Of a stretch of 4,360 nucleotides of DNA, positions 1 to 4,350 are shown one piece after another. Where the stretch lies: the IMG/VR virus record IMGVR_UViG_2645727868_000005; one strand, written 5' to 3'. Position 1 is the stretch's first letter; every line of letters starts with the position of its first letter. The translations under genes and the position numbers were made by a program. The notes beneath the pieces were generated by a model. It searched no databases, was not told where the DNA came from, and saw only the letters and a program-made list of their open reading frames with translations. The stretch is from a virus. Taxonomy: Duplodnaviria; Heunggongvirae; Uroviricota; Caudoviricetes.

Positions 1-1537
1 CGGGAAATACACCGCACAGGATGCAACGACAGCACAGAAAGGGATAATCCAGCTAAGCAGCGCGACCAACAGCACGTCTGAAACGCTGGCGGCAACGCCA
101 AAGGCAGTAAAAGCAGCCAATGACAATGCTGAGAAACGTCTGCAGAAAGATCAGAACGGTGCGGATATCCCTGGCAAAGACACCTTTACGAAAAATATTG
201 GTGCCTGCCGTGCCTTCGGTGGGTCAGTAAGCACAACAACAGGAAACTGGACGACTGCACAGTTTATCGAGTGGCTGGATTCTCAGGGAGCATTTAACCA
301 TCCATACTGGATGTGCAAGGGTTCCTGGTCTTATGGCAATAATAAAATCATTACTGATACTGGCTGCGGTAATATTCATCTCGCCGGAGCTGTCATTGAA
401 GTAATGGGGATAAAGTCAGCGATGACGATCCGCATTACCACTCCGACCACATCCAGCGGTGGCGGAACAACCAACGCCCAGTTTACCTATATTAATCACG
501 GAACAGATTATTCACCTGGCTGGCGAAGGGACTATAACTCCAGAAATAAGCCAACGGCATCAGAGATCGGGGCGTTACCGTCAGGTGGAACAGCAGTATC
601 ATCAGTTAATCTGTCTTCAAAAGGTCGGGTAACCGCGCTGACAGACAATACGCAGGGGGCAACAGGTCTTGAGTTATACGAGGTGTATAACAACGGATAT
701 CCAACAGCGTATGGAAATATCATTCACCTGAAAGGGATGACAGCCGTTGGCGAAGGTGAGTTACTCATCGGCTGGAGTGGTACAAGCGGTGCTCATGCTC
801 CGGCATTTATTCGTTCACGACGGGATACGACCGACGCAAACTGGTCGCCGTGGGCGCAGCTTTACACCTCGGCTCATCCTCCTGCAGAGTTTTATCCAGT
901 CGGTGCACCAATCCCGTGGCCATCAGATACCGTTCCGTCTGGTTATGTCCTGATGCAGGGGCAGACTTTTGACAAATCTGCATACCCGAAACTTGCAGCC
1001 GCTTATCCGTCAGGCGTGATCCCTGATATGCGTGGCTGGACGATTAAGGGCAAACCTGCCAGTGGTCGGGCCGTATTGTCTCAGGAACAGGACGGCATTA
1101 AATCGCACACCCACAGCGCCAGCGCATCCAGTACGGATTTGGGGACGAAAACCACATCGTCGTTTGATTACGGCACTAAATCCACGAATAACATCGGGGC
1201 GCATACGCACAGTGTGAGCGGTACAGCCGCAAGTGCCGGAAACCATACTCATAGTGTCACAGGCGCATCAGCAGTCAGCCAGTGGTCACAAAATGGGTCA
1301 GTACATAAGGTAGTGTCTGCGGCCAGTGTGAATACAAGTGCTGCAGGAGCGCACACTCATAGTGTCAGCGGCACAGCTGCATCTGCAGGTGCTCACGCAC
1401 ATACTGTCGGTATTGGTGCTCATACGCACTCGGTTGCGATTGGCTCACATGGACACACCATCACCGTTAACGCTGCTGGTAACGCGGAAAACACCGTCAA
1501 AAACATCGCATTTAACTATATTGTGAGGCTTGCATGA
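1..1537 (+). CDS. stf: Side tail fiber protein, C-terminal portion (lambda Stf-like); 5' end lies upstream of the window
   Basis: The reading frame beginning at position 2 is open from the window edge to TGA at 1535-1537; the ATG at 311 in the ORF track is internal. The translation carries the conserved tail-fiber box [21 protein letters not shown] (nt 50-112), which I recall from P2 gpH and lambda Stf, a [55 protein letters not shown] segment, seven HxH repeats ([54 protein letters not shown]) and the C-terminus [15 protein letters not shown] that I recognise as lambda-type Stf. Confidence 0.9.
1106..1456 (+). repeat. Protein-level His-x-His repeat array in the tail fiber tip (diverged at DNA level, not a nucleotide tandem repeat)
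   Basis: Seven HxH motifs in G(A/S/N)H(T/A/G)H(S/T) contexts are encoded between 1106 and 1456. The two [15 protein letters not shown] copies use different synonymous codons, so this is an old in-frame duplication. Confidence 0.7.
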
Positions 1538-2436
1538 TTACGCTCATTCTTTCTGCACCAGTAACCGAAATGGCTGAAGCATTTAAGCGGGTATTTGCAA
1601 ATGCAGATAATGTGAATATTGTCGGAAAGCCATTTGAAACAATCAGAGAATTTGACTGCATGGTAAGTGCGGCAAATAGTTTCGGCCTGATGGATGGCGG
1701 TGTTGATGCCGCCATTACCACATTCTTCGGTTCTCAGCTACAGGCCCGCGTTCAGAATCATATTCTTCGTGAATATCTCGGCGAGCAGCCTGTAGGTTCT
1801 GCATTTGTTATTGAAACGGGGCATAATTATCACCCCTGGCTGGTACATGCGCCAACAATGCGTGTTCCGTTGACAATTGACGGAACAGACGCTGTATATA
1901 ACGCAACTTGGGCAGCTCTACTTGCTATCTTTCAGCACAATAAAAACGCAACGACAGACAGGAAAATAAAGACGGTGGTATTCCCTGCAATGGGAGCCGG
2001 ATGTGGTCAGGTGCCGTTTGAAAGCGTTGCCCGGCAGATGAAGCAGGCATGGGATAACTTTAATAAAAAAACAGAATCAATTAACTGGGAATACGCACAA
2101 TCCCGCCAGTCGGCAGTATTTGGCACATATGCATACTGTCCGGGTAATTCTGTTTGCCGTTATGCGGATACTAAATATATTGGATGCGGCGATTATCGGA
2201 CGTATTGCTCACGCTCCGGGCAGGTCTGTATTAACCCTGAACATCAGGCTGATGATGTACTGATACAACATCAGGCTAATAACCGGTTTCGCCCTGGTTC
2301 GCATATACACCGGATTAATCCAGAAAATCCTGTAGGTAATGTCATCTCTGGCGCACATAGCCACGGAAGTAGCATCGTTATTGGTGCTCACACCCATACG
2401 CTCAATAAACAATATTCTGTCTCTGATATTAAGTAG
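1534..2436 (+). CDS. Macro-domain (ADP-ribose binding/processing) protein fused to a Cys-rich, HxH-containing fiber-tip-like C-terminal module
   Basis: 300-aa ORF. Its ATG (1534-1536) overlaps the stf stop (ATGA, 1534-1537), with GAGG at 1525-1528 five nt upstream. Residues around nt 1654-1716 read [21 protein letters not shown], matching the macro-domain N-A-A-N...G-G-G-V...A-I box; nt ~1975-2010 encode [12 protein letters not shown], matching the second macro box (AFPAISTGVYG-like). The C-terminal part has five Cys in [32 protein letters not shown] and two HxH motifs (GAHSHG, GAHTHT). Stop TAG at 2434-2436. Confidence 0.75.
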
Positions 2437-2444
2437 AGGTGAAC

Positions 2445-3029
2445 ATGGATTTCAGAATGAGTGAACAACCACGGACCATAACAATTTATAATCTGCTGGC
2501 CGGAACTAATGAATTTATTGGTGAAGGTGACGCATACATTCCGCCTCATACAGGTCTGCCAGCAAACAGTACCGATATTGCACCGCCAGATATTCCGGCT
2601 GGTTTCGTGGCTGTTTTCAACAGTGATGAGTCATCGTGGCATCTCGTTGAAGATCATCGGGGTAAAACGGTTTATGACGTGGCTTCCGGCGACGCGTTAT
2701 TTATTTCTGAACTCGGCTCATTACCGGAAAATGTCACCTGGTTATCCCCGGAAGGGGAGTTTCAGAAGTGGAACGGCACAGCCTGGGTGAAGGATACGGA
2801 AGCAGAAAAACTGTTCCGGATCCGGGAGGCGGAAGAAACAAAAAACAGCCTGATGCAGGTAGCCAGTGAGCATATAGCGCCGCTTCAGGATGCTGTGGAT
2901 CTGGAGATCGCAACGGAGAAAGAAACCTTGTTGCTGGAAGCCTGGAAAAAGTATCGGGTGTTGCTGAACCGTGTTGATACATCAACTGCACCTGATATTG
3001 AGTGGCCTGCGGTCCCTGTTATGGAGTAA
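2445..3029 (+). CDS. tfa: Tail fiber assembly protein (chaperone), lambda Tfa family
   Basis: ATG at 2445 with SD AGAGGTG (2435-2441) five nt upstream. The product [79 protein letters not shown]...[11 protein letters not shown] is 194 aa and near-identical along its length to lambda Tfa ([18 protein letters not shown]...) as I remember it. The ORF track's GTG at 2439 is two codons upstream and overlaps the SD, so ATG 2445 is preferred. Confidence 0.92.
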
Positions 3030-3043
3030 TCGTTTTGTGATAT

Positions 3044-3090
3044 GCCGCAGCAACTTGTCATGGCAGGATACTGCGGCTGATTTGTGAATT
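3044..3090 (+). terminator. Possible weak intrinsic terminator or stem-loop between the convergent tfa and RT genes
   Basis: Perfect 7-bp inverted repeat GCCGCAG (3044-3050) and CTGCGGC (3071-3077) with a 20-nt loop, followed by the T-rich but interrupted TGATTTGTGAATTT. The long loop and broken U-tract make it weak. Confidence 0.25.
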
Positions 3091-3141
3091 TAAATAGTGT
3101 GTTTATTGCTTTATATATAAAGGATTTAATGGATTACATAT

Positions 3142-4260
3142 CTATGATATCCCTGAAATGTCCTCTTCAAGCTCTTTTACTGATTTCGCAATTTTAAATT
3201 TAAATTTTCTCTCTATTTCACTATTGCTAAGTTTTTTTTCATTCTCTTTCCCTATCCACATAGAAACAATTTCTCGTTTCTGAGATATATGTAGATTGTC
3301 AAAGTTAGGTATGTATTTAAAAGTCTCCGCTCTACCCCTGCGGAGTTCATAGAAAGTTTTAATCAAAGACTTTGGTTTTATTTCTGATGAAAGGCCGAAT
3401 CGGCGGATAAGATTATTGATCGTATGATTAACAGCTCGAAGTTGAGCTGTTGACGTTATTTGTGAGAAGTACGATACCCATCCCAATCGTTTACCTTCAA
3501 ACACACATCCCGTAATTCTAAGATTTAGTTTCCACTGACAATATGCAACAGCTCGTTCTTTATCGTGCTTATTTTTAGCTTGTAGTAGAGCGTGTCTATA
3601 TGCAGTAAAAATTTTTGCTAAGGATGACTCAAATCTAAGAATGCTCTCATGTTTTATCAATAATTCTCGATTTTTTATGTGGTAGCCCAAAAAGTTGAAA
3701 CTTTCATCCAAGCTGCCTACTTTGGATTTTGAGTTCTCTTCATTTAATGGATGTGGGTTTAAATTTAATGATTGAAGCTTATCAATGATATGAGATGCAA
3801 TTTTTGTTGCTTGATCTTTTTGCGTTAAAATAAGAATGTCATCAACGTATCGCATGTACCATATGTCATGCATTTTATTGATTTCATTGTCGAAATCAGA
3901 TAGTGATATTTCAGCTAAAATGTTTGATATTGCTAACCCCTGAGGTACTCCTCTGGTATTATTAGGGACACCTTTGCTTCCTGTACTTCCACTTACAGTA
4001 GGCACGATTAATGATGATGTTATTAACTGCCTAATTTCTTTTTTTCTAATCTTATTTTTTATTGCATTAAATATCAATTTATGTTCAATTGAAGGATAGA
4101 AACTTTTGAGATCTATTTTTGCATATTCAGCATATAGATCGCTGTTTAATGCATTTTTCAATAAGTCAATTACTGTATGTGGTAGTTTTAATCTGGAGTT
4201 AGGATATATTTCTGTAAGGCATACCAGATTCGCCCGGATCTTCCGAAGTTGTTTCCACAC
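3142..4260 (-). CDS. Reverse transcriptase, compact single-domain prokaryotic RT (candidate defence-associated RT; class unresolved)
   Basis: 372-aa minus-strand ORF from GTG (plus 4258-4260) to TAG (plus 3142-3144). RT motifs present: motif 1 IDLKSFYPSI (plus 4087-4113), motif B RGVPQGLAISNILAEISL (GVPQG at plus 3937-3951), motif C YMRYVDDILIL (YVDD at plus 3838-3849), motif 7 FNFLGYHI. An in-frame TGA lies 11 codons upstream of the GTG with no other start in between. The gene is AT-rich (roughly 30-35% GC) against about 50% GC in the fiber genes. Confidence 0.85.
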   Translation of the reverse strand: MWKQLRKIRANLVCLTEIYPNSRLKLPHTVIDLLKNALNSDLYAEYAKIDLKSFYPSIEHKLIFNAIKNKIRKKEIRQLITSSLIVPTVSGSTGSKGVPNNTRGVPQGLAISNILAEISLSDFDNEINKMHDIWYMRYVDDILILTQKDQATKIASHIIDKLQSLNLNPHPLNEENSKSKVGSLDESFNFLGYHIKNRELLIKHESILRFESSLAKIFTAYRHALLQAKNKHDKERAVAYCQWKLNLRITGCVFEGKRLGWVSYFSQITSTAQLRAVNHTINNLIRRFGLSSEIKPKSLIKTFYELRRGRAETFKYIPNFDNLHISQKREIVSMWIGKENEKKLSNSEIERKFKFKIAKSVKELEEDISGIS

Positions 4261-4300
4261 ACCGAAAAGAACGCAGCTTAAATTTCCATTTCACGCTCTT

Positions 4301-4330
4301 TAACAATAAGCAATCAACTTAACAGTCAAT
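4301..4330 (-). promoter_or_regulatory. Candidate sigma70-like promoter for the RT gene (speculative)
   Basis: On the minus strand, TTGACT (-35-like; plus 4324-4329) is followed 15 nt later by TATTGT (-10-like; plus 4303-4308), about 45 nt upstream of the GTG start. Spacing is slightly short and the -10 match is 4 of 6. Confidence 0.2.
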
Positions 4331-4350
4331 TCAAACTAAAGGAGTCAATT

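Follow-up and report, generated by a model that had tools for sequence, protein, structure and literature searches.

The minus-strand open reading frame (ORF) of 372 aa at positions 3142-4260, with a GTG start, is very probably a 5'-truncated fragment of the reverse transcriptase (RT) gene of DRT10 (UG17), an anti-phage system. The window, meaning the whole stretch of 4,360 bp that was analysed, is the complete contig LJYB01000073.1 of the Escherichia coli JA33 draft genome (GCA_001306605.1). The annotated 372-aa protein is a chimeric reading frame, since the sequence switches to a cro-cII region at 4222/4223, and the "compact orphan RT" described in the initial annotation is not a biological unit, whether this junction is real or an artefact. 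DRT10 is already known: UG17 was characterised in 2025-26 as a tripartite defence system formed by an ncRNA, SLATT and the RT (10.1101/2025.10.16.682844; 10.64898/2026.04.29.721553). The window adds a fragment to this system and no new stand-alone RT. The significance of the result is mainly corrective, as a draft-contig boundary made the three-part DRT10 resemble a novel stand-alone RT.

Prophage context of the window

E. coli JA33 is a bloodstream uropathogenic isolate with a draft genome in 121 contigs, assembled with the A5 pipeline from MiSeq 2x250 TruSeq reads at 54x coverage (PMC4722275). Positions 1-4228 of the window align with the chromosome of the ST131 strain THO-003 at 99.83% identity. 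Over 4,222 bp only five substitutions separate the window from the ST131 prophage (575, 614, 632, 662 and 707), and positions 708-4222 are base-for-base identical to intact ST131 prophage loci, THO-003 (locus L001) included. All five substitutions fall inside 133 bp of the tail-fibre gene; the cluster at 575-707 suggests a small recombination patch.

The features of the window are listed in Table 1. The gene order is tail fibre, macro-domain gene, tfa and then the RT ORF, which is convergent with tfa. The AT-rich island that had been described after the fiber module was recovered, with a GC content of 0.31-0.38 over 3001-4350 vs 0.42-0.55 to its left. The spacer between the convergent genes contains a GC-rich hairpin (GCCGCAG...CTGCGGC, 3044-3077) folding at -20.3 and -17.5 kcal/mol on the two strands. 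From its position it could be the terminator of both the tfa and the RT genes; a consensus terminator scan did not flag it.

Two further elements were identified in the tail-fibre module. The first is a 300-aa macro-domain protein encoded between the tail-fibre gene and tfa, the start of its gene overlapping the fibre gene stop. The C-terminal third of this protein is Cys/His-rich with fibre-like GAHSHG/GAHTHT repeats, and against PADLOC it gave only a faint DarG-like match (E=0.005). The presence of a macro domain inside a tail-fibre module is unusual. The second is a match to Rfam IS009 (RF02111) at 2788-2986 on the plus strand, with 218 bits for a gathering score of 117. It is the sole Rfam match in the window, lies wholly within the tfa coding sequence and was also found in the ST131 locus (L001 5759-5957).

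Table 1. Features of the window and of the related complete loci (positions are those of the window unless a locus is given)
Feature	Position	Strand	Basis
Lambdoid prophage tail-fibre module	1..3029	+	Pfam Collar/Phage_fiber, Macro, Caudo_TAP; THO-003 annotation
Tail-fibre gene, 3' part	to 1537	+	part of module 1..3029
Macro-domain gene	1534-2436	+	Pfam Macro 5.9e-19
tfa	2439-3029	+	part of module 1..3029
tfa/RT intergenic spacer (convergent genes)	3030..3141	.	identical in THO-003
DRT10 (UG17) RT gene, 3' part, codons 98-456 + stop	3142..4222	-	RT_UG17 match; THO-003 identity
Breakpoint microhomology AAGGCAT (7 bp), common to RT gene and cro-like gene	4216..4222	.	three-way alignment
cro-like (ydaS-type) regulator, last 21 codons + stop (...KAYQIRPDLPKLFPHTEKNAA, stop)	4216..4281	+	100% identical to PhiR26_1 Cro
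Spurious 5' extension of the ORF, GTG + 12 codons, MWKQLRKIRANLV	4223..4260	-	alignment with PhiR26_1 cro and THO-003
cro-cII spacer	4282-4350	+	PhiR26_1 annotation
cII/YdaT-like gene, first 10 nt (ATGCAACCAC), then contig end	to 4360	+	PhiR26_1 annotation
DinI-like/ncRNA/SLATT/RT cassette	L001 6001-8476; L005, L006, L007 4001-6383		

Motifs and family assignment of the RT

The four RT motifs reported at first were all located in the ORF: IDLKSFYPSI (residues 49-58, window 4087-4116), GVPQG (residues 104-108, window 3937-3951), YVDD (residues 138-141, window 3838-3849) and FLGY (residues 190-193, window 3682-3693). The match to Pfam RVT_1 is far past chance (E=9.3e-19). The initial counts of about 50 residues before motif 1 and about 180 after motif 7 stand, being about 48 ahead of the first visible motif and 179 behind the last, but the label given to the first motif does not. 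IDLKSFYPSI is RT motif 2, with the first catalytic Asp, and motif 1 is missing. Of the 205 positions of the RVT_1 profile, the window ORF is aligned only from 49 onwards, the intact protein from 8.

The retained part of the RT has no internal stop or frameshift and keeps motifs 2-7 and the priming serine. The ORF ends in ...ISGIS, and the codon of the C-terminal Ser, equivalent to S456 of the intact protein, is at 3145-3147. An intact frame with its catalytic motifs speaks against a dead fragment, although it could also indicate a recent event or an assembly artefact. As initially described, no fused domain, partner gene or ncRNA was identified in the window by Pfam, Rfam and similarity search. 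The chimeric 372-aa protein is on record in RefSeq as WP_283234776.1, "RNA-directed DNA polymerase".

Judged by profile, the RT can be placed confidently in UG17, which is the RT of DRT10. PADLOC RT_UG17 matched the ORF with E=3.5e-117 and 390 bits, residues 13-372 aligning on profile positions 97-429 of 429, and the intact homologue of THO-003 (456 aa) spans positions 1-429 of 429 with 527 bits. The next PADLOC family was Drt3a (9.1e-35); Drt9 gave 1.4e-18. Membership of another RT class (retron, group II intron, DGR, Abi or DRT2/3/9) has a negligible probability. The weak NCBIfam cross-matches that would point to it are those of Drt3a (110 bits, equivalog cut-off 200), the group II intron RT/maturase TIGR04416 (105 bits, cut-off 300) and retron_St85_RT (57 bits, cut-off 235), all below their cut-offs as is Drt2 (76 bits, cut-off 390), and the other classes are about 80 orders of magnitude worse in E-value than RT_UG17. 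At Rfam gathering thresholds no group II intron or retron RNA came up in either the window or the intact locus; there was no RNA near the window RT, and the DRT10 ncRNA of the intact locus went unrecognised. The early suggestion of a defence-associated UG/DRT-type RT other than a retron is borne out. Its alternative, a possibly unclassified RT, is replaced by a confident assignment to a family with published function and mechanism.

Truncation of the RT gene

The 456-aa RT of THO-003 and the ORF are identical over residues 98-456 of the former and 14-372 of the latter. The small size of the ORF, formerly read as compactness, is on this alignment the result of a 5' truncation at 4222/4223 with the loss of 97 residues. 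The lost residues 1-97 hold the block YKxKLISKG..PRxISIPTxRDxIxL, in the region of RT motifs 0/1. This is the most conserved block of the family and is kept in all 8 of the full-length UG17 RTs that were aligned, which come from Campylobacterota, Bacillota and Pseudomonadota and are listed by Tang et al. in their Table S1 (10.1101/2025.10.16.682844).

Codons 1-13 of the ORF (4222-4260) do not belong to the RT; they run antisense to the 3' end of a cro-like gene. The 138 bp after 4222 are a 100% match to the cro-cII region of lambdoid/Rac-type prophages, and 1515 of 5426 complete E. coli genomes carry them between genes annotated as "transcriptional regulator" and "toxin YdaT domain-containing protein". 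The part at 4216..4281 is also 100% identical to "transcriptional regulator" genes of E. coli prophages. The 138-bp piece was not found in the same ST131 prophage (L004), where the immunity region differs.

Upstream of the GTG there is no ATG and stops occur in all three frames; a promoter scan gave no promoter-like site and no Shine-Dalgarno was visible on reading the sequence. That the 372-aa protein is a genuine stand-alone, partner-free defence RT acting in abortive infection or superinfection exclusion is therefore highly improbable, since start codon, ribosome binding site and promoter are missing, the leading codons are antisense cro sequence and the conserved N-terminal residues that include RT motif 1 are absent. 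A frame that stays open from motif 2 through to the C-terminus and an accessory position in a prophage favour such a protein, but the form was found in no other genome searched, and in published homologues DRT10 defence is lost without SLATT or ncRNA. The RT has been placed in a characterised family and the gene is plausibly a decayed remnant; on these two counts the stand-alone reading is largely refuted.

Of the defining features of DRT10, the window has the UG17 profile match, and the catalytic YVDD together with the C-terminal Ser. A complete RT, a SLATT_5 neighbour and a structured A-B-A' ncRNA are the three that it lacks, and so the fragment is filed as a piece of the known system. As it stands the fragment is probably inactive, because the template, the effector, RT motif 1 and the expression signals are all missing.

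Intact loci in complete genomes

In THO-003 the start of the RT gene overlaps the end of its upstream neighbour, a gene for a 183-aa SLATT protein (PADLOC RTasSLATT 2.8e-57; Pfam SLATT_5 2.3e-28). The SLATT sequence of the intact system is MHENIWFTYKARIQ... Upstream of SLATT are a sigma-70-like promoter (read by eye), a 137-nt RNA (L001 8167..8031, minus strand) and a DinI-like gene. The RNA ends in a U-run and folds into a basal stem with four hairpins (-54 kcal/mol, z=-4.9). The DinI-like gene of ST131 is frameshifted. In NZ_AP022525.1 the intact ST131 locus is found at 2263000-2266000.

The 2.16-kb cassette was searched in the 5426 complete E. coli genomes and identified in 188, with at least 80% query coverage in every one. 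The layout with SLATT and ncRNA directly upstream is present in 188/188 of the RT-carrying complete genomes. The RT is thus not an orphan, as had been proposed, and its partners are cut off in this contig: tblastn with the SLATT protein returned nothing in the window, and no trace of the ncRNA or of the RT N-terminus (residues 1-97) was found there.

The cassette of DinI-like gene, ncRNA, SLATT and RT forms the right end of lambdoid prophages at three sites, yecD/aspS, dusA and prfC, and the tail-fibre modules ahead of it differ between integration sites. This cassette is a mobile accessory unit at the prophage end, in agreement with the initial reading of its place beside tfa in a lambdoid prophage as an accessory position. 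Behind the Q gene of the ST131 prophage (L004 15974-18832) is another likely defence island, in which a cytosine methyltransferase is neighboured by a HEPN-like nuclease of the MAE_28990 family and by a DUF262 protein.

Origin of the junction

The RT/cro junction was identified in none of the 5426 complete E. coli genomes, and exact searches with a 43-mer and a 28-mer of the junction returned nothing in one-genome-per-species contigs, IMG/VR and JGI metagenomes. Among about 15 billion proteins the chimeric ORF is on one contig only, and it sits in a protein cluster of 954 members with a representative of 456 aa.

Of the two origins considered, we slightly favour a real illegitimate recombination, specific to strain JA33, by which the system was destroyed, over a chimeric contig tip. 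The latter, with a little under an even chance, would mean that a chimeric read or fragment added the 138 bp to the contig tip and that JA33 keeps the intact ncRNA-SLATT-RT cassette. That the ORF is a singleton and that the junction is missing both from the complete genomes and from collections of genomes, viruses and metagenomes argue for the artefact, as does a foreign tail shorter than one 250-nt read after which the contig stops straight away. Also in its favour, other draft assemblies break in the RT 5' region, and the window up to 4222 agrees in every base from 708 with intact ST131 loci. A simple deletion could not produce the junction from the arrangement in the ST131 strain R3, where about 220 kb separate the RT from the cro piece and the two are oriented head-to-tail. 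On the other hand, the 7-bp overlap at the junction requires spanning reads, and with 54x coverage an assembler would normally discard a rare chimeric edge if the true path is available; the contig is unbranched. Genuine illegitimate recombination, too, typically shows microhomology of this length (7 bp). The contig tip coincides with the beginning of the cII/ydaT-like gene, and two prophage matches break off before reaching it, so it is conceivable that a prophage mosaic boundary ended a real contig.

If the junction is a real recombination, as we favour, it is a minor instance of defence-system loss by illegitimate recombination between prophages. If it is an artefact, the RT would function as part of an already known system; neither outcome changes what the gene is.

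Partial RTs were also identified in independent drafts, where contigs end at residues 62, 73, 81 and 88 (2-4 contigs each), within 30-110 nt of the JA33 breakpoint (L001 about 7222-7300). Long exact stretches shared by two alleles were considered as the cause of these recurrent ends and rejected, as mismatches occur every 10-40 nt. Our guess is a loss of coverage in this region of 27-36% GC. It is very improbable that the junction is real and at the same time one case of recurrent breakage of the DRT10 RT 5' region, either by a hotspot or by selection against a costly autotoxic system. On that reading the recombination in JA33 would have left the RT remnant immediately leftward of a cro-cII spacer, the place where promoters of the lambda pRE type direct transcription leftward.

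Mechanism of DRT10 and template alleles

Defence by DRT10 needs the RT active site, SLATT and the ncRNA (10.1101/2025.10.16.682844; 10.64898/2026.04.29.721553). The RT of Eco3_DRT10, bound to the ncRNA, uses its own C-terminal serine as primer; A-B is copied, the nascent DNA re-anneals at A' and telomerase-like cycles yield kilobase tandem-repeat ssDNA (10.1101/2025.10.16.682844). In the homologue of Escherichia sp. E3659, the threshold for activation is determined by SbcB and a phage SSB-like protein (10.64898/2026.04.29.721553). SLATT is presumed to be the membrane effector. By analogy, in the intact alleles identified here the 456-aa RT would bind the ncRNA of about 137 nt transcribed upstream of SLATT and copy A-B-A' by serine priming into tandem-repeat ssDNA, which together with the SLATT membrane effector would provide the phage defence.

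The RT and SLATT of this lineage are in Table S1 of the first study, with "SLATT associated" and "ncRNA associated" both TRUE (10.1101/2025.10.16.682844). The allele at the prfC site (L006/L007) has an RT with 95% protein identity to the ST131 allele and an ncRNA that carries CAAUGAUUC-CAAU. Numbered from GGAUGGGG, this ncRNA reproduces every published coordinate of the Eco3_DRT10 ncRNA, the length of 137 nt included: U15, U62 and U64 are in U-tracts, U110 comes fourth in A, and C116, A117 and U119 are in A'. The published Eco3 template CAATGATTC was found in the prfC-site allele, and the published 9-nt product GAATCATTG is the reverse complement of the template of this allele. Neither the window nor the ST131 locus contains this published template.

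The ST131 template (L001 8061-8049, minus strand) differs from the Eco3 type at position 110 (U>C) and position 112 (A>G). Its A-B-A' is CAAC-GGUUC-CAAU, and the homology of A and A' is only 3 nt. Applying the published A-B-A' rule, the cDNA repeat of ST131 is predicted to be GAACCGTTG and not GAATCATTG. The intact ST131 allele, which lies outside the window, is with its variant template a natural test of this rule.

Comparison with known systems

Eco3_DRT10 belongs to the same profile family. Its RT has the C-terminal priming residue S456 and its SLATT and RT genes overlap (10.1101/2025.10.16.682844), and the intact alleles likewise comprise an RT of 456 aa ending in Ser, a SLATT-RT overlap and a 137-nt ncRNA upstream. 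The window copy differs in lacking residues 1-97, SLATT and the ncRNA, and the closest intact allele (ST131) departs from Eco3 at two template positions.

The UG17-A DRT10 of Escherichia sp. E3659 (10.64898/2026.04.29.721553) shares with the intact locus the order ncRNA-SLATT-RT, the overlap of SLATT stop and RT start and an effector of the SLATT_5 family. Differences are an ncRNA of about 143 nt and a 7-nt repeat, and only for E3659 is there regulation by SbcB and a phage SSB-like trigger (10.64898/2026.04.29.721553).

DRT9 (UG28) and DRT3 (UG3/UG8), which are class 2 UG/Abi RTs, have related RT cores and also perform ncRNA-templated synthesis of repetitive cDNA. They belong to other profile families, with other templates (poly-U, ACACAC) and other partners. 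Finally, telomerase (TERT and TR) is comparable to the intact DRT10 only, with which it has in common repeat addition, a short internal RNA template and a flanking realignment sequence, whereas DRT10 is bacterial, protein-primed and yields free ssDNA.
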